Under the pieces are notes generated by a model. It saw only the letters and a program-made list of their open reading frames with translations. It was not told the DNA's origin and did no database searches. 64,000 bases of DNA from Blastocatellia bacterium. GTDB lineage: Bacteria; Acidobacteriota; Blastocatellia; HR10. The position numbers were made by a program, and so were the translations under genes. Location of the stretch: positions 699-64,698 of the forward strand of contig DATLZR010000013.1 in NCBI GenBank assembly GCA_035573895.1. The letters run 5' to 3'. Of the stretch, positions 3,088-61,582 are shown one piece after another (the first letter of the stretch is position 1; each line of letters begins with the position of its first letter).

Positions 3088-3362
3088 CACCACCCCAGAA
3101 TAGAAATCCGCCGGGGAATACGTCGCAGCGGCAGCTCGCGCGGCGGGCCGTAATAAATCTTCTGACACGCCAGGCACCGATAGAAGACCGATCCTGCCGG
3201 AGCCCGCTGCCGCAGCGAATCGGACACCACCGGCATGACCTTCAATGGCCCCCAACAGGGCTTGCCTTTGGCGTCCTTCTCATCGCAATTTGTCTGGTTG
3301 GGTTTGATCGGTTTGAGGGCGGGGACCTCCGCCGTCGAAACGGTTTCCGTTGTCTGAGTCAT
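3087..3362 (-). CDS. Small hypothetical protein of about 91 aa, Cys-containing.
   Basis: ORF 3087..3416. Internal ATG at 3362 (MTQTTETV...). Contains CDEKDAKGKPCW...YRCLACQKIYYGP. No family recognised. Confidence 0.35.
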   Translation of the reverse strand: MTQTTETVSTAEVPALKPIKPNQTNCDEKDAKGKPCWGPLKVMPVVSDSLRQRAPAGSVFYRCLACQKIYYGPPRELPLRRIPRRISILGW

Positions 3363-3423
3363 AGCCTCACCGAAAATGTTGCGCCTGTTGTGGCGCAAGC
3401 TTTCCAGCTCGCGCATTCCTGTA

Positions 3424-3530
3424 GGGCAGGCTTTCCAGCCTGTGTTCTTCGCAGACTCGAAAGTCTGCGCTACATGTAGCGCGGGCTTTCCAGCCTGCGT
3501 TTTTTCGCAGACTTGAAAGTCTACGCCACC
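3424..3530 (+). repeat. Dispersed double-hairpin repeat, locus A: two tandem units.
   Basis: Hairpin 1 is gGGCTttccAGCCtg. Hairpin 2 is CGCAGACTcgaaAGTCTGCG followed by ctac. The unit repeats at 3479-3530. Intergenic, downstream of recR. Confidence 0.8.
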
Positions 3531-3541
3531 GCGAAAAATAG

Positions 3542-4141
3542 CTAGATGTCTCGACGATTGGCAAGAGCACGATACATCGTGACTTCGTCGGCGAATTCGA
3601 TGTCGCTGCCCACCGGCAGCCCCATGGCGATGCGCGTCACGCGCACGCCCAGGGGCTTGAGAAGTCGCGCCAGATAGTTGGCCGTCGCTTCCCCCTCGGT
3701 CGTCGGATTGGTTGCCAGGATGATCTCTTTCACCTCGCCCGACCGAAGCCGGGTCAAAAGATTCCGCACCTTCAAATCCTCCGGACCGATGCCGCGAATT
3801 GGCGAAAGCGATCCATGCAACACATGATAGAGCCCGCGATACTCGCGCGTCCGCTCAATGGCCACCACACTGGACGGTTCCTCGACCACGCAGATGAAAC
3901 TGTGATCGCGCGAAGGATCAGAGCAAAAGCGGCAGGGATCAGTCTCGGTCAGATTGTTGCACTGAGAGCAGAGAGAAATCCGGCGCTTGACATCGAGAAT
4001 AGCTTCGACCAATCGCTCCGCCTGCTCCTGGGGAACGCGGAGAAGATGAAAGGCGATCCGCTGCGCCGACTTCTCGCCGATTCCCGGCAGCCGCTTCAGC
4101 TCATCAATGAGTCGCGTGATGGGCTCGGCGTAATCCGGCAT
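3542..4141 (-). CDS. recR: Recombination protein RecR.
   Basis: [35 protein letters not shown]4 zinc finger [16 protein letters not shown], Toprim region. ATG at 4139-4141. Confidence 0.95.
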
Positions 4142-6315: not shown

Positions 6316-6420
6316 CAGGCTTCGGGGTGATCCGCAGCACACGGTTACCACCACTACCGTTGCTCCCTTCCGGGCCTGGCGGGGTTCGCAGTGGAACCAT
6401 CGCACGGAGCCCGAAGCCTG
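6316..6420 (-). ncRNA. ffs: Signal recognition particle RNA (4.5S, ffs), small bacterial type.
   Basis: The minus strand reads ...GGCUUCGGGCUCCGUGCGAUGGUUCCACUGCGAACCCCGCCAGGCCCGGAAGGGAGCAACGGUAGUGGUGGUAACCGUGUGCUGCGGAUCACCCCGAAGCC. It contains the conserved domain-IV motif CCAGGCCCGGAAGGGAGCAAC within a long imperfect hairpin. It lies immediately upstream of dnaX, as in many bacteria. Ends are approximate. Confidence 0.7.
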
Positions 6421-6468
6421 ATCAAGCGGGCCCGCAACGCCCCCGCGCCACGGGCTCACGAGGAGTCT

Positions 6469-6561
6469 TGGCGGAGGGAGTGGGATTCGAACCCACGGTA
6501 GAGGTTTTGCCCCTACACCGCATTTCCAATACGGCGCCTTCGCCCACTCGGCCATCCCTCC
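6469..6561 (-). tRNA. tRNA-Ser(GGA), type II with long variable arm.
   Basis: Revcomp: GGAGGGATGGCCGAGTGGGCGAAGGCGCCGTATTGGAAATGCGGTGTAGGGGCAAAACCTCTACCGTGGGTTCGAATCCCACTCCCTCCGCCA. Anticodon stem CCGTA/TGCGG, loop TTGGAAA (anticodon GGA). T-arm GGTTCGAATCC. CCA encoded. Confidence 0.88.
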
Positions 6562-6580
6562 TGAATCCATCGCCACAGGT

Positions 6581-6669
6581 TGGCGGAGGGAGAGGGACTC
6601 GAACCCTCATGGGCCGTAAGACCCACCGGTTTTCGAGACCGGCTCCTTGCCAATTCGGAACATCCCTCC
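6581..6669 (-). tRNA. tRNA-Ser(CGA), type II.
   Basis: Revcomp: GGAGGGATGTTCCGAATTGGCAAGGAGCCGGTCTCGAAAACCGGTGGGTCTTACGGCCCATGAGGGTTCGAGTCCCTCTCCCTCCGCCA. Anticodon stem CCGGT/ACCGG, loop CTCGAAA (anticodon CGA). CCA encoded. Confidence 0.85.
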
Positions 6670-6712: not shown

Positions 6713-7198
6713 TTACTGCGCCCGCTCCGGCTCATCTGCAGCCGCGCGCTTTTTTTGAAAAAAGGATTGTATCATCCGCCGACAATCATCAGCAAGCACA
6801 CCCCCTTGAACCTCGATCTGATGATTGAGTCGTGCATCGGTCACCAGACGAAAAAGACTCTCCACGGCGCCCGCGCGCGGATCGGCGGCACCGTAGACGA
6901 GGCGTTTCACCCGCGCCTGAACCAGAGCCCCCGCACACATCGGGCAGGGTTCAATCGTGGTGTAGACCGTCGCTCCGACGAGCCGATAGTTGTTGAGAAA
7001 TCGGCTGGCATCCCGAAGCGCCACGATCTCGGCGTGAGCTGTCGGATCACATTCGGTCAGCACGCGATTGTGACCGCGGCCAATGACCTTCTCGCCGAGC
7101 ACGACGACGGCCCCCACGGGCACCTCATCCCGTTGCAGGGCATCCTGCGCCTCGTCCAGGGCCAGCCGCATCCAGACTTCATCCATCGGATGACTCAT
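6713..7198 (-). CDS. tadA: tRNA-specific adenosine deaminase.
   Basis: HAEIVALR ... TIEPCPMCAGAL zinc-binding deaminase motifs. 161 aa. Adjacent to tRNA genes. Confidence 0.9.
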   Translation of the reverse strand: MSHPMDEVWMRLALDEAQDALQRDEVPVGAVVVLGEKVIGRGHNRVLTECDPTAHAEIVALRDASRFLNNYRLVGATVYTTIEPCPMCAGALVQARVKRLVYGAADPRAGAVESLFRLVTDARLNHQIEVQGGVLADDCRRMIQSFFQKKRAAADEPERAQ

Positions 7199-7281
7199 CG
7201 GGTGGGTTCCTGCACGCCAAGGTGAAGGATCATGCTACCGAGCGATTGCGCATCGCCTCGTGGTGCGACACGCCGGATGCC

Positions 7282-11806: not shown

Positions 11807-13921
11807 ATGAAAAAGCGCGTGCGACAATTCCGGAAAGCACTACGCCTCGCCGCTTCGTTTTTCCTGATCCTCTCGCTGAGCGGTCTCGTCAGCTCCGTCG
11901 GGGCACGAGCCGACGAGGGGATGTGGACGTTCGACAATCCCCCGCTCAAGCATCTGGCCGAGCGCTACGGGTTCACCCCTACCCAGGAGTGGCTCGATCA
12001 TGTGCGGCTGTCGAGCGTGCGCTTCAACGATGGCGGATCGGGGTCGTTTGTCAGCCCTCGCGGACTCGTCCTGACCAACCATCACGTTGCTCTGGGCCAG
12101 TTGCAGAAAATTTCCACGCCGGAGAAGGACTACGTGAAAGATGGCTTTTATGCCCGGACGCTGGAGGAAGAGATCAAATGTCCCGACCTGGAACTGAACG
12201 TGCTCGTCTCGATGGAGAATGTGACGGCGCGCGTGCAGAGGGCGGTCACGCCCGGCATGAGCGAGAAACAGGCTCTCGATGCGCGCAAAGCGGAGATTGC
12301 TCGCATTGAGAAAGAGAGCCTGGACGCAACCGGCCTGCGCTCGGATGTGGTCACGCTCTACGGGGGCGGCGAATACTGGCTCTATCGCTACAAGCGTTAC
12401 ACCGATGTGCGGCTCGTTTTTGCTCCGGAGCAACAGATTGCTTTCTTTGGAGGCGATCCCGACAACTTCACCTATCCCCGGTATGATCTCGATTTCGCTC
12501 TCTTCCGCGTCTACGAAAACGGTCGGCCACTTCAGACGCCGCACTACTTGAAATGGAACAGCCGTGGCGCAGCCGAAGGGGAATTGGTCTTCGTATCCGG
12601 TCATCCGGGTTCGACCGATCGCTGGCTCACGCTCTCACAAATCGAAACGCAACGAGATTACCTCTATCCGCTGACGCTGAAGACCCTCACCCGACGGCTC
12701 GAACTCCTCAGGGCATACGCGGCTCGGAGTCCCGAGCATGCGCGCCAGGCGGCGGGGCTCATCTTCAGCCTGGAAAATGCCATCAAAGCCTACACCGGTG
12801 AATATCGGGGGCTGCGCGATCCCGCCCTCATGGCCAAGAAGGAGAAGGAAGAGAACGAATTTCGCCGCCAGATCATGAGCCGCCCCGAATGGGCCCGCGC
12901 CTTCGGCAGCGCCTGGGACGCCATTGCGGCAGCCGAGAAGAAACAGCGGGAGATGCTCAAACCGCTTCGATTTCGCTCGCTCAGGCGGAGTTTCTCCGAG
13001 CTCGCCGACATCGCTCTGACCATCGTGCAGTACGTCGTCGAGGTGAAAAAACCGGATGCCGACCGACTCGATGGCTATCATGATGCCCAACTGGAGTCGC
13101 TGCGGTTTGCGCTCTTTTCTCCTGCGCCCATCTATCGGGAGATGGAAGAAGTGCTGCTCGCCGACAGCCTCCAGGAATCGCTCGAGGAGCTGGGGCCGGA
13201 GGATCCGTTCATCCGGGCGGCTCTGGGGGGTCGCCGTCCCGCTGAGGTTGCCCGCGACATCATCTCCGGAACGAAACTCGATGACCCACAGGTTCGTCGC
13301 TCTCTCATCGAGGGAGGGGAGGCCGCCGTCGCTGCCTCGTCCGATCCGCTCATTGCCTTCGCTCGCCGCATAGACCCGTTCATCCGGGAGATGCGCCGAT
13401 GGTATGAGGAGAATGTCCTCAGCGTGGTCACAGCGGCGGGCGAGAAACTCGCGGCGGCTCGATTCGCCGTCTACGGCAAGTCCGTCTATCCTGATGCGAC
13501 CTTCACCCTGCGACTGGCCTACGGCACGGTCAAAGGCTATCCCATGAATGGGACGCAGGCTCCCCCGAAGACGACCTTTCATGGACTCTATGATCGCGCC
13601 TACAGCTTCGATTTGAAACCGCCTTACCATTTGCCGCCGCGGTACCTGGAACGAAAAGGGAAGCTCGATCTCACGACCCCGCTCAACTTCGTCAGCACTT
13701 GCGACATCATTGGCGGCAATTCCGGCTCGCCGGTGATCAATCGCCAGGGGGAACTCGTGGGCGTCATCTTCGACGGCAATATCGAAAGCCTCGTGGGAAA
13801 CTTCGTCTACATCGAGGAAACAAACCGCGCCGTCGCCGTCCACAGCGCGGCCATCATTGAAGCTTTGCGCAAGCTCTACGACGCCGACGCACTGGCCGAC
13901 GAACTGGAGGGGAAACGGTAA
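11807..13921 (+). CDS. Peptidase S46 family dipeptidyl-peptidase (DPP7/DPP11-like), secreted.
   Basis: ATG 11807 is preceded by GGAGG. Signal peptide, ADEGMWTFDNPP, FNDGGSGSFVSPRGLVLTNHHV (His region) and C-terminal GGNSGSPV (Ser nucleophile), typical of S46. Confidence 0.85.
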   Translation: MKKRVRQFRKALRLAASFFLILSLSGLVSSVGARADEGMWTFDNPPLKHLAERYGFTPTQEWLDHVRLSSVRFNDGGSGSFVSPRGLVLTNHHVALGQLQKISTPEKDYVKDGFYARTLEEEIKCPDLELNVLVSMENVTARVQRAVTPGMSEKQALDARKAEIARIEKESLDATGLRSDVVTLYGGGEYWLYRYKRYTDVRLVFAPEQQIAFFGGDPDNFTYPRYDLDFALFRVYENGRPLQTPHYLKWNSRGAAEGELVFVSGHPGSTDRWLTLSQIETQRDYLYPLTLKTLTRRLELLRAYAARSPEHARQAAGLIFSLENAIKAYTGEYRGLRDPALMAKKEKEENEFRRQIMSRPEWARAFGSAWDAIAAAEKKQREMLKPLRFRSLRRSFSELADIALTIVQYVVEVKKPDADRLDGYHDAQLESLRFALFSPAPIYREMEEVLLADSLQESLEELGPEDPFIRAALGGRRPAEVARDIISGTKLDDPQVRRSLIEGGEAAVAASSDPLIAFARRIDPFIREMRRWYEENVLSVVTAAGEKLAAARFAVYGKSVYPDATFTLRLAYGTVKGYPMNGTQAPPKTTFHGLYDRAYSFDLKPPYHLPPRYLERKGKLDLTTPLNFVSTCDIIGGNSGSPVINRQGELVGVIFDGNIESLVGNFVYIEETNRAVAVHSAAIIEALRKLYDADALADELEGKR

Positions 13922-13944: not shown

Positions 13945-14038
13945 GAAGTAGCGCAGACTTCCTAGTCCGCGAAGAACCGCCGGCTTGAAAGCCTGCACTA
14001 CAGGTGGCGAAAAAACGCAGGCTCGAAAACCCGCGCGA
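13945..14038 (-). repeat. Dispersed double-hairpin repeat, locus B: two units, inverted orientation.
   Basis: Revcomp contains gcgcgggttttcgagcctgcgttttttcgcc... and aggctttcaagccgg...cgcggactaggaagtctgcgctac. Intergenic between the S46 peptidase and the nitrilase. Confidence 0.75.
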
Positions 14039-14051
14039 CAGGTGTGCGACG

Positions 14052-36479: not shown

Positions 36480-37076
36480 GGGAGTAACTTTTTGCAAACG
36501 AGTGCTTGCCGTTCTTCGGCGGTCAGATGCGTTGGCAGAAGTACAAGGGGTGACGATGGTGCAGCGGGTGGAGCAGGTGTATGTGTGGCGATACTGGTGC
36601 TGGCGGTTAATGGGGGAGTTGCGATGGAGGTGGGTGGAGCGGTGGCCGGGGGAGGTGCTGGCGGTTGTGGTGTCACAATGGCGCGAGGCCGGGGGGCCGG
36701 CGCATCGTTTGAGGGCAGTGCGTGAGGTAGGTGTGCCGTTGGTGGTTTTGCTGGCATATACGCTTAAATTGAATCCGGTGGAGCGGGTGTCTTTGGGAGG
36801 TGCGTCGTTGGGTAGAGGGTGTGGTGTATGTGGGGTGGGCTATTGAGGTGAAGGTGGTGGCGGGAGTGTTGCGGGAACTGGCGTTGTCGCCTGATCGGGT
36901 GCGTTCGCTAGTGGGTTAATCCTGAAGGGTGGAGGCGGTGGAGCGGTGAGGGGAGAGAGAACACGGCGTTTGGAAAGACGATTAGTATAAACCCGACACC
37001 CGAATGGGCGTGGTGCGAGCGCCTGCCTCCGGTGGGGCTGTAGGAGCGCACGCCGGAAGGCGTGCACTCCCGGCAA
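36480..37076 (-). other. GT-skewed low-complexity tract. The minus strand encodes Pro/Ala/Thr-rich ORF fragments in two frames.
   Basis: The plus strand is almost C-free with reiterated ggtgg(a/c)g(c/g)ggtg-like motifs. Minus ORFs 36362..36757 and 36840..37076 are Pro-rich (PPAPPP...). Coding status is uncertain. Confidence 0.3.
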
Positions 37077-40338: not shown

Positions 40339-40495
40339 GCGTCCTCCTGAGAAAAGGGCCACAGATCTCACACAGTGGCACCGATTTTTCAGCTCGATTG
40401 TTTATTCCCTGAAGCCACAAATGGAGGAGATTCGCACCGATTCCTCTCGCTCGGTAAAATCGGTGGAACCTGCGGCTCCATCTCCTCGGAAAAAA

Positions 40496-40580
40496 GGGCA
40501 CGGGCTTTCCAGCCCACGCCCTGTCGCGGACGGAAAAGTCTACTTTTCGTCATTTCCGGGCGGAAGTCCCGCTCCATGAG
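40496..40580 (+). repeat. Dispersed double-hairpin repeat, locus C: single degenerate unit.
   Basis: gggctttccagccc ... cgcggacggaaaagtctac. Intergenic between ald and ptb. Confidence 0.6.
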
Positions 40581-40597
40581 TCGCTCCTCCGACGTTC

Positions 40598-41557
40598 TCA
40601 CGCCGTCTGTGTCGGTCGCGGTGGGCTTTCGGGCGACGGGGATACTCCTTCCCTCGCGCGCATCAGAAGACCGAGCGCGATGGAGAGAAATTTCGCCTCG
40701 GCGCTATCGGATCGCGAAGGGATGAGCACCGGAACGGAAGCTCCCACCGTGACGTGGGCCAGACGGAAGCGGGCGAAGTAGACTGTGCTTTTCGCCAGGA
40801 CATTGGCGACTTCGATATTTGGCGCCACGAGGATGTCGGCGCGCCCGACGACGGGCGAACTGATCCCCTTCGCCTCAGCCGCTTCGGGCGCTACGGCCAG
40901 ATCGAGCGCCAGCGGACCCTCGATGAGACAGCCGGGGATTTGTCCCCGCTCGTTCATCTTCGAGATCACCGCCGCTTCCAGCGTGGAAGGTATCGCGGGG
41001 GTGACTTTCTCTGTCGCCGAGAGAAGAGCGACCCTGGGCATCTCCCAGCCGAGCACCTGAGCGACGCGCACGGCATTGCGGATGATCTCGATCTTTTCGG
41101 CCAGACCGGGACTGACGTTGATTCCTCCATCGGTGATCATCATCAACCGATTGGGCTGTCGGGCGGGATTCTCGAAGAGGAAGACATCGCTCAAAAGCTG
41201 ACCGGTGCGGAGGCCGCTTGTCGAGTCCAGGACGGCCCGCATCACGGTGGCCGTATCAACCGAACCTTTGAGGAGAATGTCCCCCTGTCCGGCGCGGATC
41301 CGGGCGACGGCCTCGCGGGCGATCTCGGCGTCATCGGAGCAATCGAGGATGGGGAGATCGGCCTTGAGCGAGCGAAGCAGCGGATGAATCCGATCCCGCC
41401 GACCGACGACGAGAGTCTCGGTCCGGAACTCGGCGGCAGCGGCGATGACCGCTTCGAGCGCGGCGCGATTGTCGCCGCCGGCAACGACGATTCTCTTGCC
41501 GGGGATGAGACGGGCGTGCTCGACCATCTCATCAAAGCTGTAAATCGCCGATGTCAT
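40598..41557 (-). CDS. ptb: Phosphate butyryl/acetyltransferase.
   Basis: Pta/Ptb family, full length (LIPGKRIVVAGGDN...GSVDTATVMRAVLD...ADILVAPNIEVANVLAKS). Located next to a butyrate-kinase-like gene. Confidence 0.85.
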   Translation of the reverse strand: MTSAIYSFDEMVEHARLIPGKRIVVAGGDNRAALEAVIAAAAEFRTETLVVGRRDRIHPLLRSLKADLPILDCSDDAEIAREAVARIRAGQGDILLKGSVDTATVMRAVLDSTSGLRTGQLLSDVFLFENPARQPNRLMMITDGGINVSPGLAEKIEIIRNAVRVAQVLGWEMPRVALLSATEKVTPAIPSTLEAAVISKMNERGQIPGCLIEGPLALDLAVAPEAAEAKGISSPVVGRADILVAPNIEVANVLAKSTVYFARFRLAHVTVGASVPVLIPSRSDSAEAKFLSIALGLLMRAREGVSPSPESPPRPTQTA

Positions 41558-41647
41558 CGCTTCGTCCTCCCGATTCCCGGAAGGAATCCTGCGATACTGT
41601 TGTGATCGAGGCGGATCGGACGGATGCGCATGGCTCCCACTCCCTCA

Positions 41648-42724
41648 TCAGACGTATTCTTTGGCCGTTTCCTCGCCCATCAGGACGCGGCGGGCGCCAG
41701 CGGCCAAAGCCCGCATCTCCATGTCTTCACTGAGGACGATCACCGGGGCGATGAACTCCACGCGCTGTCGAATCCATCGGACCAGCAGGTCTGACCGGCT
41801 CAGTCCCCCGGTGAGGAGAATCGCATCCACCCGACCGTTGAGCACCGCGGCCATGGCCCCGATTTCTTTGGCGATCTGGTAGGCCATCGCTTCATAGACC
41901 TGAGCGGCGTAGGTATCTCCTTGAGCGATGCGCTTTTCGACTGCCGTGGCATCGGTGATTCCCAGATAGGCCACCAATCCGCCCTGGCCCATCACCATAC
42001 GGCGCATTTCGCTTTCGGTCACGCGCCCGGAGAAGCAGAGCGTGATGACGGGCTGAAGCGGCAGACCGCCGGTTCGTTCCGGCGAGAACGGTCCCTCGCT
42101 GGAAGCATCATTGGCATCAATGATGCGTCCGCTCCTGACCGCACAGACGGATATTCCTCCACCCAGGTGACCGACGATGAAGCGTGTTTGTTCCAGAGGC
42201 CGACCGAGGCGATGGGCTGCATCGCGGGCGATGGCATGAACGCTGAGCGCGTGGGTGAGGCTCCGTCGGGGAATCTGCGGATGGCCCGACAGTCGTGCGA
42301 GCGGCTCGAACTCGTCCACCGAGACGGGATCCACGACAAAGGCGGGGACGTCGGCCCGACGGGCTACCTCCCAGGCCAGGGCGCAGCCGAGATTGGCCGC
42401 GTGCTGGCCTTGAATGCCCCGCCGCGCGTCTTCCAGCATGCGCTCGGTGACACGATAGACACCGCCGTCAACCGGTTTGAGCAAGCCGCCGCGACCGACA
42501 ACCGCATCGAGATCCATGACCGAGCACGTCCACTCGGCGAGGGCATCCCACACAAAGGCGAGACGAAACTCCAATTGATCCCAGAGAGTGGCGAACCGAT
42601 TCAACTCCTCCGGCGGATGACGCACCGTCTTGTCCTGACGTGGCCGCTCGCCGTCAAACAGCCCCACGCGCGTGGACGTGGAGCCGGGATTGATGACGAG
42701 AATGAGAGGTTCTTTTGCGGCCAT
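41648..42724 (-). CDS. buk: Butyrate kinase / branched-chain fatty acid kinase (acetate kinase family).
   Basis: LILVINPGSTSTRVGLF...IVGHLGGGISVCAV...LTGGLSRSDLLVRWI. ATG at 42724. The track M at 42739 is TTG. Confidence 0.85.
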   Translation of the reverse strand: MAAKEPLILVINPGSTSTRVGLFDGERPRQDKTVRHPPEELNRFATLWDQLEFRLAFVWDALAEWTCSVMDLDAVVGRGGLLKPVDGGVYRVTERMLEDARRGIQGQHAANLGCALAWEVARRADVPAFVVDPVSVDEFEPLARLSGHPQIPRRSLTHALSVHAIARDAAHRLGRPLEQTRFIVGHLGGGISVCAVRSGRIIDANDASSEGPFSPERTGGLPLQPVITLCFSGRVTESEMRRMVMGQGGLVAYLGITDATAVEKRIAQGDTYAAQVYEAMAYQIAKEIGAMAAVLNGRVDAILLTGGLSRSDLLVRWIRQRVEFIAPVIVLSEDMEMRALAAGARRVLMGEETAKEYV

Positions 42725-42740
42725 GGTCGTCTGGGTCAAG

Positions 42741-45365: not shown

Positions 45366-45478
45366 GTCGCGCGGGTTTCCCCGCCTGTATCGCTTGGAGC
45401 GCAAGCTTTCCAGCCGGCGTTTCTCGCAGACTCGAAAATCTGCGCTACGTCGGCAGACTGAAAAGTCTGCGCTACGCT
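45366..45478 (+). repeat. Dispersed double-hairpin repeat, locus D.
   Basis: gcgcaagctttccagccggcgtttctcgcagactcgaaaatctgcgctacgtcggcagactgaaaagtctgcgctac. Intergenic between the amino-acid dehydrogenase and the OFOR gamma subunit. Confidence 0.75.
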
Positions 45479-46023
45479 GGGATTTGAGCTGCTCGGCCAT
45501 AGTCGTATCCGCTCTCGAACGCTTTCTGGTTCAGGGCGACAGCGGACGAGGGGAACGAGGTAGCCAGTGCTTGAGTCATCGCTTCCACCGTCGCTACCTG
45601 AGCGAGCGCCGTCAGGCAGCCGAGCATGACGACGTTGGCGACGATGCGATGCCCGAGCTGTTCGGCCAGGCGCGTGGCCGGAATGCGGAACAGGCGCACG
45701 TCGGGTCGCACCGGGTCCGGGACGACCAAATCCTCATCAATGAGCAACAGTCCCTCCGGTTTCAACTCAGCGGCAAACGTCGTGTAGGCTTCCTGCGACA
45801 TGGCGATGACGATGTCGGGTCGGGTGAGATAGGGATAGTGAATCGGTTCATCGGCGATGATCACCTGGGCGCTACAGGCGCTGCCCCGCGCTTCCGGCCC
45901 GTAGGACTGAACCAGAGTGGCATAGCGATGATCATAGAGCGCCGCCGCCTTGCCCACCAGATAGCCGGCCAGGATGACTCCCTGCCCGCCGAAACCGGAA
46001 ATTCTCACCTCGGTGTGGCTCAT
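45472..46023 (-). CDS. 2-oxoacid:ferredoxin oxidoreductase gamma subunit.
   Basis: MSHTEVRISGFGGQGVILAGYLVGKAA..., Por/Vor/Kor gamma family. Confidence 0.85.
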   Translation of the reverse strand: MSHTEVRISGFGGQGVILAGYLVGKAAALYDHRYATLVQSYGPEARGSACSAQVIIADEPIHYPYLTRPDIVIAMSQEAYTTFAAELKPEGLLLIDEDLVVPDPVRPDVRLFRIPATRLAEQLGHRIVANVVMLGCLTALAQVATVEAMTQALATSFPSSAVALNQKAFESGYDYGRAAQIPA

Positions 46024-52805: not shown

Positions 52806-53855
52806 GTTTCACCTCGTTGGCTTTGAGAATTTGTTCCACCAGTTCTTCGGCCGTGGGAACCACTCCTCCGAACCGACTGTAGAGCAAGACGGGCCGCTCG
52901 CCTTCGATGGCCAGTCGCACATCCTCGACGAGTTGTCCCGCGCTCAGTTCGACGGTGAGAAAGCATTGCGCCCAATCGGCCAGCACCGATAGCGGTTCGG
53001 CAGGAAATGGCCACAGCGTGATCGGACGAAAGAGTCCGGCCTTGACGCCCTGCGCCCGCGCTCCGTCCACGGCTGTTTTCAAGATGCGCGAGACGATCCC
53101 ATAGCCGACCGTGATGATCTCCGCATCCTCGGTTTTGTACTTCTCATAAAGCAGGACGCTATGTCGCGCCCGCGCGTACTTCTGTTCGAGATGGCGAATA
53201 TGCTGCTCCAGCTCTTCCGGCGCAAGATAGATTGACGTGATCAGATTGGAGCGCGTCTGGGCATTGCCGCACACAGCCCACTCCGGCGGTTCAGGCAAAA
53301 CGGCGGTGGAAGGGAATTCCACCGGTTCCATCATCTGACCGATGAAGCCGTCGGCCAGCACAATCACCGGATTGCGGAACCGATCGGCCAGATCGAAGGC
53401 GAGCATCGTCAGGTCACACATCTCCTGAACGGAGTTGGGCGCGAGGACAATTGTCCGGTAATTGCCGTGGCCGCCGCCCTTGACGATCTGGTGGTAATCG
53501 CTTTGTTCCGGTGCGATATTGCCCAGGCCGGGCCCCCGCGCATGATGTCCACGATGACGCAGGGAAGTTCGGCACCCGCCAAATAGGAGATGCCTTCTTG
53601 CATCAGGCTCAGCCCCGGCCCCGAGGAGGCCGTCATCGTCCGCTGTCCGGCGGCAGCCGCTCCGTAGACCATATTGATGGCTGCCACTTCGCTTTCGGCC
53701 TGAAGGAAGGTCCCCCCGACCAGAGGGAAGTATCGGGCAGCCGCTTCGGCGATCTCACTGGCCGGCGTGATCGGATAGCCGTAGAACGAGCGACATCCCG
53801 CCAGAATGGCCGCAATCACCACCGCTTCATTTCCCTTGACGAGCTGCTTGGCCAT
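52756..53855 (-). pseudogene. 2-oxoacid:ferredoxin oxidoreductase alpha subunit interrupted by a 1-nt frameshift near 53528-53542.
   Basis: ORF 53409..53855 ([35 protein letters not shown]...[11 protein letters not shown]) and ORF 52756..53421 ([11 protein letters not shown]...) are the two halves. Restoring one base in the GGGGGCCCGG run gives [49 protein letters not shown]. May be a sequencing error. Confidence 0.75.
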
Positions 53856-54343: not shown

Positions 54344-55483
54344 TCACCCAGGTGAGGAGATCATCGGCCAGGGGCCTGACAGCCAATTCTTCCAGAGAGG
54401 ACGCGAGTCACCAGAAGCCGCCGCGCTCAGAGCGACGCCGGCTATCGCCTGGTCGCACTCGCCGCACCGACCATTGACGATTCGATTGAGCAGCGTGTGA
54501 TAGCCCTGGCGCTCGATGAGAATTGTTCGGCAGCGAGGGCAATAGGTGTGGGCGCACGACGATCCCGGAATGTTCCCGCAATAGACGTACCGCAATCCGA
54601 CGGCGTGCCCAATTGCGCAGGCGCGATAGAGCGTCTCCAGCGGTGTGGGCTCGCACTGCCCCATCTGATAGGAAGGGAAGAAGGCGGCGACGTGCCAGGG
54701 AATATCCCGCGATAGCGACGCGACAAACTCCGCCGTGCGATAGAGTTCCACGTCCGAATCGTTATGACCGGGAACAACCAGCGTGGTCACTTCAATCCAC
54801 ACGCCGAGCTGATGCAGCATCCGGATCGTCTCCAGAACCGGTTCCAGCCGCGCTCCGCAGCACTGCTGGTAGCGATGATCATCAAACCCCTTGAGATCAA
54901 CGGCCGCGGCCGCCAGATAAGGGGCGAGCAACCGAAGCGCGGCGTCGGTCAGGTAGCCGTTGGTGACGAGCAAATTTTTCACTCCCTGAGCATGGGCCAG
55001 GCGAGCCGTTTCGTACATCAACTCGAAAGCGACGGTCGGCTCCGTGTAGGTGTAAACGATGCTGCGGCAGCGATGCGCTCGGGCGGAAGCGACGATCTCC
55101 GGAGGAGTAATGCGCCGACCGATGACCCGCCCTCGATTCCCTTTCGGGAGCTGGGAGAGCGTGTAATTCAGACAGTAGCGACAGCGCATCGTGCAGCCCA
55201 CCGTCGCCAGCGCCAGAGCCGCCGAGCCGGGATCAACGTGATAAAACGAATGCCTCTCCACCGGCTCCACCGCCATCGCCACAATCCGATCAGACACAAG
55301 CGTGTAGAGCCGCCCCTCGTGATTGACCCGCACACCACACAGCCCGCGCTGGCCCGGACCAAGAGCGCAACGGTGAGCGCAGAGATCGCAGACGACATCC
55401 TGAGCGCCGACGCGATGATAGAGCATCGCTTCCTGTGCCGCCCGCTGAATTCCTGTAACACCTTGTTCGTCCCGGTTCGTCAT
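54344..55483 (-). CDS. Radical SAM enzyme, AmmeMemoRadiSam-system (AmrS)-like.
   Basis: N-terminal CDLCAHRCALGPGQRGLCGVR and radical SAM CTMRCRYCLNYTLS (CxxxCxxC). No amrA/amrB adjacent. Confidence 0.7.
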   Translation of the reverse strand: MTNRDEQGVTGIQRAAQEAMLYHRVGAQDVVCDLCAHRCALGPGQRGLCGVRVNHEGRLYTLVSDRIVAMAVEPVERHSFYHVDPGSAALALATVGCTMRCRYCLNYTLSQLPKGNRGRVIGRRITPPEIVASARAHRCRSIVYTYTEPTVAFELMYETARLAHAQGVKNLLVTNGYLTDAALRLLAPYLAAAAVDLKGFDDHRYQQCCGARLEPVLETIRMLHQLGVWIEVTTLVVPGHNDSDVELYRTAEFVASLSRDIPWHVAAFFPSYQMGQCEPTPLETLYRACAIGHAVGLRYVYCGNIPGSSCAHTYCPRCRTILIERQGYHTLLNRIVNGRCGECDQAIAGVALSAAASGDSRPLWKNWLSGPWPMISSPG

Positions 55484-59809: not shown

Positions 59810-59848
59810 CTTCGCTCACCTCCCCTGAAAAATGTGTTTCCTTGTGGT

Positions 59849-59984
59849 GCGGGCTTTCGAGCCCGCGCATCTCTCGCGGACTGGAAAGCTTCGCTACAGT
59901 GCAGAAAGTCTGCACTACGTCGCAGACTCTTGTGGCGCGGGCTTTCCAGCCTGCGCATCTCTCGCGGACTGGAAAGTCCGCGCT
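59849..59984 (+). repeat. Dispersed double-hairpin repeat, locus E: two units.
   Basis: CGGGCTttcgAGCCCG + CGCGGACTggaaAGCTTCGC..., then gcagaaagtctgc, then GCGGGCTttccAGCCTGC + CGCGGACTggaaAGTCCGCG. Compensatory changes relative to locus A preserve the 8-bp stem. Confidence 0.8.
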
Positions 59985-61582
59985 GCTTCTCCCTTCTGCC
60001 GGGCGAGGATTTCCACGGTTCGGAGCCAATCTTTGTACGCCTCATAGCGATTGGCGCGCTCGGGCGTGAGGTTCCGATCCGTGTTGTCCTCCCAGCGCCG
60101 AACCAGGAGCAGCGGTTCGTAGATGCGCCCCACCTCGTAGTGACGGCTGAGGCGCAAACAGACGGCATAATCTTCGCCGAAACTCACATTGGGGAAGCCG
60201 ACGCGCCGCAGCAGGGGAACGTAAAAGGCGCGGGGCGCTCCGAATCCCGAAACGCGCAAGGCATTGTTGCGCCCGTTGTCCGGCGTCCACTCCCGATGAT
60301 CCACCACTCCCGGCGGAATCGGTTCGCCGTCAAAATTGACGGTTCGATACGAACCGATCACCAGGGCATAGCGCGGGGCCCGCGAGCGAGCCTCCTCCGG
60401 CGCGGCCGGTGGCGCCTCGGGCGCATAAAAGGCGGCGATGATCTTCTGGAGAACATCGGCATCGGCATAAAGATCATCGGAATCAAGCTGAACGGCAAAC
60501 AGCCCGCACGACGGAGAGAAAATCGCTTCGTTCCAGCATCCGCCGATGCCCAAATCCCGCCGCGAGGGAATACGGTGAAGGAGCCGATCATCCTCGCGCC
60601 TCATCTGCTCGATGATCTCGCTCGTTCCATCGGTGGAAAAGTTATCCACCACGATCACGTTGAAGGAGAAAGTCGTTCTCTGTGCGAGGGCGCTTCGAAG
60701 GGCATCTCCGATTGTGCGCGCGCGATTGCGAACGGGAATGACCACGCTGGCCAGGACGGGAAAATCATGCTCCGGCAGCGGAATCGGAGCGAACACGGGT
60801 TCCAGATAGGCTCCGATGCGTCGGAGATGGGCCGTGGCGATCTCTTCCATCTCCTGCTCGTAGGCGCGATTCTCCGGTTTCACGTAAGCGAACAGAGGGT
60901 CCTCCGGTGCGTCGGTTGGCTCGGCATCAGAAGCGACGGTCAGTCGAGGCCAGCAAAGGGAGAGCGGCTCCGGCACGTGAACAATCGGGGCATGAGAGGA
61001 TATTTTCAGCCGGAGATCATAGAGCCCGCCCCATCGCCAGCGGGGATCCACCGGTCCCAAAGCCGCGCGTACCGCGTGAACAACGCGTCGGGACAGGACC
61101 ATCACCGGGCCGAAGTCGAACGTGTCCCGCAGGCTCCCCGGCTGATACTCGATCAGCCGACGCTCCTGAAGCCGGCCCCCTTCGTGTTGCCAGAAGTCCG
61201 CGTAGACGATGCCCGCTCCCGTGTCGTCGGCAACGTCCAGAAGTCTCTCCAGCGACCGATCGCTTACCTCGACGAGCCCGCGACCGAGCAGGAGCACGAG
61301 ATAGTCGCTCGTCCACAGCTCCAGCAATCGGTTCACTGCCTCCGCCGAGAAAAACTCCCCGCACCGGATAAATCGAAGAGGGTCCTGTTGACCTCCGCCG
61401 GCCCGATCGGCCAGCATTTCCCGCCGAACGAAATGAGTCATCGCCGCCCGCTCCTCATCGGAGACCTCCTCCCGGTGAAAGAGAATGAGATCGGTCACCG
61501 AGGGGGATCGCGGAAGCAGATCGAGTTGCTGACGAAAGGCCGTCAGATTCTCGTAGACGAAAGCCAGCGTGAGCGTCCTCAT
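59915..61582 (-). CDS. Glycosyltransferase family 2 protein (two-domain).
   Basis: GT2 core VVIPVRNRARTIGDALRSALAQ...NVIVVDNFSTDGT...DSDD. The C-terminal codons run into repeat locus E. Confidence 0.75.
   Translation of the reverse strand: MRTLTLAFVYENLTAFRQQLDLLPRSPSVTDLILFHREEVSDEERAAMTHFVRREMLADRAGGGQQDPLRFIRCGEFFSAEAVNRLLELWTSDYLVLLLGRGLVEVSDRSLERLLDVADDTGAGIVYADFWQHEGGRLQERRLIEYQPGSLRDTFDFGPVMVLSRRVVHAVRAALGPVDPRWRWGGLYDLRLKISSHAPIVHVPEPLSLCWPRLTVASDAEPTDAPEDPLFAYVKPENRAYEQEMEEIATAHLRRIGAYLEPVFAPIPLPEHDFPVLASVVIPVRNRARTIGDALRSALAQRTTFSFNVIVVDNFSTDGTSEIIEQMRREDDRLLHRIPSRRDLGIGGCWNEAIFSPSCGLFAVQLDSDDLYADADVLQKIIAAFYAPEAPPAAPEEARSRAPRYALVIGSYRTVNFDGEPIPPGVVDHREWTPDNGRNNALRVSGFGAPRAFYVPLLRRVGFPNVSFGEDYAVCLRLSRHYEVGRIYEPLLLVRRWEDNTDRNLTPERANRYEAYKDWLRTVEILARQKGEAARTFQSARDAQAGKPAPQESAT

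Follow-up and report, generated by a model that had tools for sequence, protein, structure and literature searches.

GTAG-tagged REP doublets in a Blastocatellia genome and their probable dispersal by a RAYT transposase

The closest described counterparts of the repeats analysed here are found in the GTAG-tagged REP superfamily, which includes the REPs of E. coli and Pseudomonas (Di Nocera, De Gregorio & Rocco 2013, PMC3733652), and in the REPIN-RAYT systems (Bertels & Rainey 2011, PMC3116915), for which RAYT groups are set out in PMC5581495. For Acidobacteria, the text and supplements of PMC3733652 report only RAYT-like genes flanked by long TIRs. In a 64,000-nucleotide stretch of a metagenome-assembled Blastocatellia genome (hereafter the window), we find short tagged hairpins that probably are REPs of the GTAG superfamily, forming a population spread by a RAYT.

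These repeats are built from 24-nt units, in each of which an unpaired GT[A/G]G tag leads into an 8-bp stem with a TTCN loop. In the window, 14 units are clear and about four more are decayed, all of them confined to five unlinked intergenic loci. Among the 14 units, the tag always lies 5' of the stem, on the strand whose loop reads TTCN; seven tags read GTAG, four read GTGG and three are decayed. The loop occurs in the window units as TTCC, TTCG, TTCA, TCCT or TTTC. An earlier note on this DNA had described the repeat as two different hairpins and had missed the GTAG tags. Both hairpins have an 8-bp stem and a 4-nt loop: hairpin 1 reads GT[AG]G-CGCGGGCT-TTCC-AGCCTGCG, and hairpin 2, when reverse-complemented, reads GT[AG]G-CGCAGACT-TTCN-AGTCTGCG. 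Since hairpin 2 is thus a hairpin-1-type unit on the other strand, the double hairpin represents two inverted REP units with their tags on the outside. The two subtypes can be told apart by their apex, which is GGCT-TTCC-AGCC in G-type units and GACT-TTCC-AGTC in A-type units. Most units are paired head-to-head as G-type/A-type heterodimers, with the tags pointing outward and a spacer of 5-7 nt between them. The TTCG loops, which had been taken for the stable UUCG tetraloop, are closed by a U-A pair and hence do not form the canonical C(UUCG)G.

Pattern searches and covariance models agree on the extent of the family. Allowing up to two mismatches, a hairpin-2 pattern of the type CGCRGACT-N4-AGTCYGCG has 8 matches in the window vs 0.15 expected, and the hairpin-1 core pattern has 8 vs 1.46 expected; for either pattern, none of 100 shuffles reached 8 matches. 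A covariance model of the 24-nt unit that includes the window units (R1) matches 14 units in the window at E<=0.024, distributed as five at locus A and three each at loci B, D and E, with decayed remnants at C and E. A second model, built exclusively from units outside the window (R2), recovers 13 of the window units with E<=0.023 from loci A, B, D and E, as well as weak remnants at C and E, with best E-values down to 1e-6. All five of the intergenic loci named in the earlier note hold units. The units are arranged as follows (window coordinates, strand in brackets).

Locus A, 3390-3413 (+): single G-type REP, GTGG-CGCAAGCT-TTCC-AGCTCGCG; R1 30.1 bits, E=3.9e-5; R2 E=6e-4.
Locus A, 3421-3473: doublet 1, G-type 3421-3444 (+) and A-type 3450-3473 (-), 5-nt spacer; found by R1 and R2.
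Locus A, 3476-3529: doublet 2, G-type 3476-3499 (+) and A-type 3506-3529 (-), spacer TTTTTT.
Locus B, 13948-14039: A-type 13948-13971 (+), G-type 13978-14001 (-) and G-type 14016-14039 (-); found by R1 and R2.
Locus C, 40446-40596: 151-bp insertion directly 3' of the pta stop codon, absent in 98%-identical strains.
Locus C, decayed doublet: G-type 40499-40518 (+) and A-type 40525-40544 (-); partial covariance-model match at 40502-40515 only.
Locus D, 45366-45475: decayed G-like unit at about 45366-45390 (+) and G-type 45396-45419 (+).
Locus D, A-type units: 45425-45448 (-) and 45452-45475 (-); found by R1 and R2.
Locus E, 59844-59986: G-type 59844-59867 (+), followed by decayed A-type units 59875-59897 (-) and 59900-59918 (-); found by R1 and R2.
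Locus E, doublet: G-type 59932-59955 (+) and A-type 59963-59986 (-); found by R1 and R2.

Locus A is the largest cluster. Repeats are present there as previously noted, but the cluster of five units begins at 3390 rather than at 3424. The outer tags of doublet 1 read GTAG...CTAC, and in the predicted fold they pair with each other around the two hairpins. Doublet 2, which holds the top match of the window (R1 38.3 bits; R2 E=9.7e-7), lies in the gap between recR, whose stop is at 3542, and the next minus-strand gene, which starts at 3362. At the transcription-downstream end of this cluster, a terminator-like hairpin, TTGCGCC-ACAACA-GGCGCAA followed by CATTTTCGGT, lies at 3379-3398 (-) and is built partly from the tag and stem of the first REP. 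Locus B separates two + strand genes, those for the S46 peptidase (stop at 13921) and a C-N hydrolase, and the tag of its unit at 14016-14039 (-) has decayed to GTCG. Outside the five loci, a hairpin at 37047-37075, which has a GTAG tag, 11 bp in its stem and GGAA as its loop, weakly matches the REP models (E about 0.03-0.08). In a 98%-identical strain (L131), 17 nt of this hairpin, corresponding to one arm and the loop, are missing, and the hairpin thus looks newly made by inverted duplication or insertion.

The stems of the repeats covary, in line with the earlier proposal of a dispersed family selected for its structure. When 23 doublets from the window and from other phyla are aligned, the two-hairpin model pairs 95.9% of its stem cells, compared with 81.8% after shuffling (none of 500 shuffles scored as high), and pairing drops to 27-40% when the register is slid. 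Eight stem pairs are altered on both sides in these doublets, all of them within the outer stems. Because the search pattern fixed the inner 4 bp alone, the outer 4 bp provide a fair test of covariation. Across the phyla sampled, variation falls in the outer four pairs, and the loop and the apical four pairs are essentially unchanged. In the 14 window units, the stem pairs comprise 96 Watson-Crick, 9 G.T, 3 A.C and 4 other combinations. The compensatory change that had been pointed out at locus E is real, but it concerns one pair (A-T to G-C) and not two. Covariation is equally strong in 96 direct-type copies from Verrucomicrobia (see below), in which pair 31/44, for example, is C-G in 49, G-C in 28, A-T in 17 and G-T in 2. 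Among mismatches on the tag strand, G.T outnumbers A.C by 9:3 in the window, but the two are about even across phyla and the difference is not significant; hence, these counts cannot separate selection at the DNA level from selection at the RNA level.

Each doublet could in principle also fold into a single long hairpin. This model pairs 82.8% of the stem cells in the 23 doublets, as opposed to 95.9% for two separate hairpins; because the G-type and A-type members differ, it leaves a C.A mismatch in all 23 and a G.T in 22 of them. Thermodynamic folding of three doublet-holding regions gave the long hairpin as the minimum free energy structure in two, and in the remaining one the tags paired around two hairpins. 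Given the pairing percentages of both models, we take the small hairpins to be the conserved structure and the pair to be a consistent heterodimer. The fixed G-type/A-type pairing with its C.A mismatch could represent a selected design that keeps two small hairpins in place of one cleavable long hairpin.

All five loci lie between co-directional genes, directly 3' of the upstream ORF. The earlier note had placed all copies at gene ends or between operons; the clusters at loci D and E overlap the 3' ends of ORFs. At locus D, the POR-gamma stop codon (45472-45474) is the TAG inside the tag of the last unit, and the protein has 183 aa compared with 202 aa in the related locus L128, about 19 residues having been lost (45472-45560). 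At locus E, the GT2 ORF traverses the doublet and ends at the TAG of a remnant tag (59915-59917), giving a protein of 555 aa vs 541 aa in relatives L124/L125, with a 14-residue C-terminal gain read through the REP doublet (59915-59986). We attribute both altered ends to REP insertions, with a REP tag supplying the stop codon in each case.

This location raises the question of whether the hairpins are primarily cis-acting RNA elements, selected for their effect on the expression of neighbouring genes as 3' mRNA stabilisers, operon-internal processing or attenuation sites, or terminators. Their position directly 3' of an ORF between co-directional genes at every locus would fit such elements, as would the presence of G.U-compatible pairs, and the REPs of E. 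coli are generally known to stabilise upstream mRNA (discussed in PMC3733652). The polarity relative to transcription is also identical, with the A-type unit coming first in the direction of transcription at all five loci, inverted locus B included. The chance of this arrangement is about 1/16 (n=5), and a related locus (L122) has the opposite polarity; the pattern is weak evidence that hints at an RNA-level or transcription-linked constraint, which simple transposition does not explain. Other properties of the repeats argue against an RNA element as their primary identity. The tags of each doublet lie on opposite strands, which fits DNA recognition. The flanking genes, as judged by Pfam matches of the neighbours, are a functionally unrelated set (recR, S46 peptidase, C-N hydrolase, pta, alanine dehydrogenase, Glu/Leu dehydrogenase (GDH), POR-gamma, fumarase and GT2 glycosyltransferase). 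No curated Rfam RNA family matches the repeats: at gathering thresholds, the window yields only an SRP RNA and two tRNAs, and at locus A the top score is 25.7 bits vs a threshold of 46, with nothing relevant at E-value thresholds either. The SRP RNA, a bacterial small form scoring 68 bits, is located at 6317-6669 (-) and is followed by the two tRNA genes.

The terminator role, one of the functions proposed earlier, finds no support as the primary identity: there is no consistent T-tract 3' of the units in sense orientation as an intrinsic terminator would have, relatives do not share the loci, and the neighbouring genes have nothing in common. A terminator scan does not flag the units and at locus A reports only a different hairpin (3398-3379).

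Comparison with related genomes bears on the same question. Locus E is absent in the syntenic loci L124/L125 (fumarase 90% identical), in which the spacer between the GT2 and fumarase genes contains no REP. Locus D is absent in L128 (GDH 89% identical), in which 2 bp separate the genes for POR-gamma and GDH, and also in L129 (80%), which has a 35-bp gap there. At locus C, the 151-bp segment with the decayed doublet (40446-40596) is missing in L131-L133 (GDH 98% identical). These 98%-identical strains do carry REPs at locus D, but of different sequence, and four Logan contigs, which are independent assemblies of such strains, break inside cluster D. Outside locus D, R1 has no match (E<=0.5) in about 126 kb of DNA from the relatives. 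The clusters are thus recent, lineage-specific acquisitions; being absent at the orthologous sites of relatives, they are not conserved regulatory sites. We therefore consider it unlikely that the hairpins are primarily RNA elements. The presence of loci C, D and E in the window and their absence in relatives are in keeping with a miniature mobile element, as had been suggested. None of loci C, D and E has the junctions of a clean insertion, and neither the locus C junctions nor the ends of the Verrucomicrobial elements described below show target-site duplications. This check, proposed in the earlier note, turned out to be uninformative, since the lack of duplications is expected for HUH enzymes.

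Several further differences among these assemblies were seen. The ack and pta genes (window ~40598-42739), which lie between a Pyr_redox gene and the alanine dehydrogenase gene, are present in the window and the 98%-identical strains and absent in the 89% relative L128; locus C is at one edge of this two-gene indel. A Logan contig from ERR14841024 is 99.98% identical to the window over the 13.2 kb they have in common. Relative to Logan contig L121, the window has one SNP (54508) and lacks two single bases, one from a G-run at 53532 and the other a T at 54756. These two gaps may reflect frameshifts introduced into the POR and radical-SAM genes by the assembly. Between about 24000 and 36000, the GC content of the window is 53-56%, compared with about 60-62% elsewhere, and this segment, which contains several large minus-strand ORFs, may have been horizontally acquired.

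A link to transposases emerges from other genomes. Two of the 120 genome blocks listed in our scan contain RAYT genes, L025 (1102-1812) and L115 (6082-6804), whose proteins match the NCBIfam model NF047646, "REP-associated tyrosine transposase", with 94.5 and 93.3 bits, respectively (cut-off 80). The L025 protein also matches Pfam Y1_Tnp, and 4ER8, the E. coli TnpA-REP, is the one PDB entry that it matches. The elements flanking both genes have the outer units GTAG-CGCAGGCT-TTCC-AGCCTGCG and GTAG-CGCAGACA-TTC[C/T]-TGTCTGCG, which are identical to the window units at 23 of 24 positions for the G-type and 21 of 24 for the A-type. Directly upstream of the RAYT gene in L115, whole four-hairpin elements form a tandem array with a 139-bp period (6805-7250). 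The protein family is large: a threshold of E<=1e-10 gives 1460 relatives, and one of E<=1e-30 still gives 432 representative clusters. Four further representatives (51%, 49%, 44% and 40% identical; loci L139, L140, L141/L142 and L143) are all flanked by the same hairpin family. The flank unit in L140 reads GTAG-CGCAGATT-TCCT-AATCTGCG, and next to the 40%-identical homologue the hairpin is CGCAGGCT-TCC-AGCCTGC and the tag differs, reading GGAC. Altogether, REPs of the window-type family flank six independent RAYT genes, all of them in other genomes. Together with the GTAG/GTGG tags, this bears out the earlier suggestion of a REP-like element.

These transposases also allow us to weigh whether the repeats are instead MITE or PATE derivatives of an autonomous IS200/IS605-type insertion sequence or another transposon, independent of RAYTs. 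RAYTs and IS200 TnpA are related, and subterminal hairpins are recognised by both; the L115 RAYT weakly matches the IS200 model (E=2e-4, below the cut-off), and in some Verrucomicrobial MAGs the hairpins lie within an element of about 165 bp with terminal inverted repeats. The flanked transposases, however, pass the RAYT equivalog model and not the IS200 model, and their only solved relative is TnpA-REP (4ER8). Moreover, a GTAG tag and units of 24 nt are typical of REPs, and neither tnpB nor IS-sized copies occur in any locus retrieved. Hence, a RAYT-independent transposon origin seems very improbable to us.

The family is spread well beyond the window. Scanning species-representative genomes with a loose doublet pattern returned at least 120 blocks, and most of those listed are Verrucomicrobiota MAGs. 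In the Verrucomicrobiota form, a second hairpin comes after the G-type unit and points the same way, and in some of these MAGs both hairpins are contained in the element of about 165 bp mentioned above. The inverted, window-like form is found in Planctomycetota, Phycisphaerae, Anaerolineae and Chloroflexota, and also in Chloracidobacterium and Pyrinomonadaceae (both Blastocatellia) and two Verrucomicrobiota, in each case by MAG label. A metagenome scan with the window-specific doublet pattern yielded 2 contigs, and a scan of IMG/VR viral contigs yielded 4 contigs with the same architecture; none of these contigs carries a RAYT. In IMG/VR contigs classed as viral, four G-type units form an array with a 32-bp period (L136 3392-3543; also L137 and L138). 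The spread across phyla rests on MAG labels with two exceptions, namely the window, assigned to Blastocatellia by protein similarity, and the RAYT-bearing Verrucomicrobiota, assigned from the L025 records and named RAYT relatives. The GDH protein of the window is 100% identical to one from a Blastocatellia MAG, and the best named matches of the fumarase are from Blastocatellia or Acidobacteriota; a tblastx comparison of the window with the 120 listed genome loci gave no taxonomic signal. A fumarase homologue with 83% identity lies at L126 780-2050, in another metagenome, within a fumarate-reductase operon about 8 kb from cas1/cas2; this locus has no synteny with the window and no REPs.

Chance similarity or local duplication within the window, for which one might cite the short, GC-rich and palindromic nature of the units and the tandem copies within clusters, is refuted by the pattern counts (8 matches vs 0.15 expected), by the genome scan (at least 120 genome blocks, in addition to the 2 metagenome and 4 viral matches) and by R2 (E down to 1e-6 with units from other genomes), and retains practically no probability.

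Our preferred reading, that of GTAG-superfamily REPs dispersed by a RAYT, is supported directly by the unit anatomy, by covariation within the small hairpins, by the RAYT genes flanked by the family at six loci elsewhere and by the gain of clusters relative to related genomes. In the mechanism we propose, the RAYT, an HUH/Y1 enzyme, would bind the tag and small hairpin on single-stranded DNA and would cut and rejoin there, seeding new copies just 3' of genes. These copies would subsequently decay, as is seen at locus C, in the remnants at locus E and in the first unit of locus D. The cleavage chemistry of this putative RAYT is carried over by analogy from work on E. coli TnpA-REP. There is no RAYT gene within the 64-kb window, which is the only part of this genome that was read, so we infer that a RAYT of this clade is present elsewhere in the Blastocatellia genome and moves the copies. 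Any effect of the repeats on mRNA ends would presumably be secondary, and it is possible that they have such a secondary role as 3' stabilisers of mRNA.

These repeats add a REP family to the Blastocatellia (Acidobacteriota), in an uncultured soil-type host for which the family had not previously been described. The conserved hairpin apex is tied to one RAYT clade across distant phyla, which is mildly unusual, and the pairing of hairpin and RAYT offers a system for asking what a RAYT reads and whether REP-RAYT pairs cross phyla. On a practical level, REP clusters explain contig breaks in assemblies of these organisms. More tentatively, one hairpin module, CGCAGGCT-TTCC-AGCCTGCG, along with its A-type partner and one RAYT clade, may have spread among at least four phyla, or been retained in them (by MAG labels, Verrucomicrobiota, Acidobacteriota, Planctomycetota and Chloroflexota). 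We regard this as a speculative possibility, somewhat doubtful at present; if true, it would constitute an inter-phylum REP-RAYT lineage, at odds with the mostly vertical inheritance of REPIN-RAYT systems.

In comparison with the GTAG superfamily (PMC3733652), the window repeats share the unpaired GTAG tag, including GTGG variants as in the O. terrae GTAG-20 family, and a stem with a short loop, their 8 bp falling among described stems of 6-13 bp. Further common traits are complementary stem variants with G.T pairs, head-to-head heterodimers, a site 3' of ORFs between co-directional genes with tag-supplied TAG stops, and, in other genomes, an association with RAYT genes. Blastocatellia are not among the phyla for which the text and supplements of PMC3733652 list GTAG repeats, nor do these contain the consensus CGCRG[G/A]CT-TTCN-AG[C/T]CYGCG; the family may still be identical to one of the 24 whose consensus sequences that paper gives in a figure. 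A literature search for four apex 12-mers returned only unrelated primer matches.

The heterodimers in opposite orientation resemble the BIMEs of E. coli, which likewise combine two REP subtypes (Y/Z in E. coli), and the L025 RAYT is homologous to E. coli TnpA-REP (PDB 4ER8). The REPs of E. coli, however, have no sequence similarity to those of the window, and IHF and gyrase motifs like those of BIME spacers would not fit into the short spacers of the window. With REPIN-RAYT systems, the family shares the inverted, tags-outward pairing of two REPs, comparable to a short REPIN, RAYT genes flanked by the same repeats (L025 and L115), and copy populations that are lineage-specific and decaying. 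It differs from them in its spacer of just 5-7 nt and in its consistently unlike arms (G-type/A-type), with the invariant C.A in the long fold. Finally, the window hairpin family is common to several phyla, whereas REPIN-RAYT systems have been described as mainly vertical within lineages.
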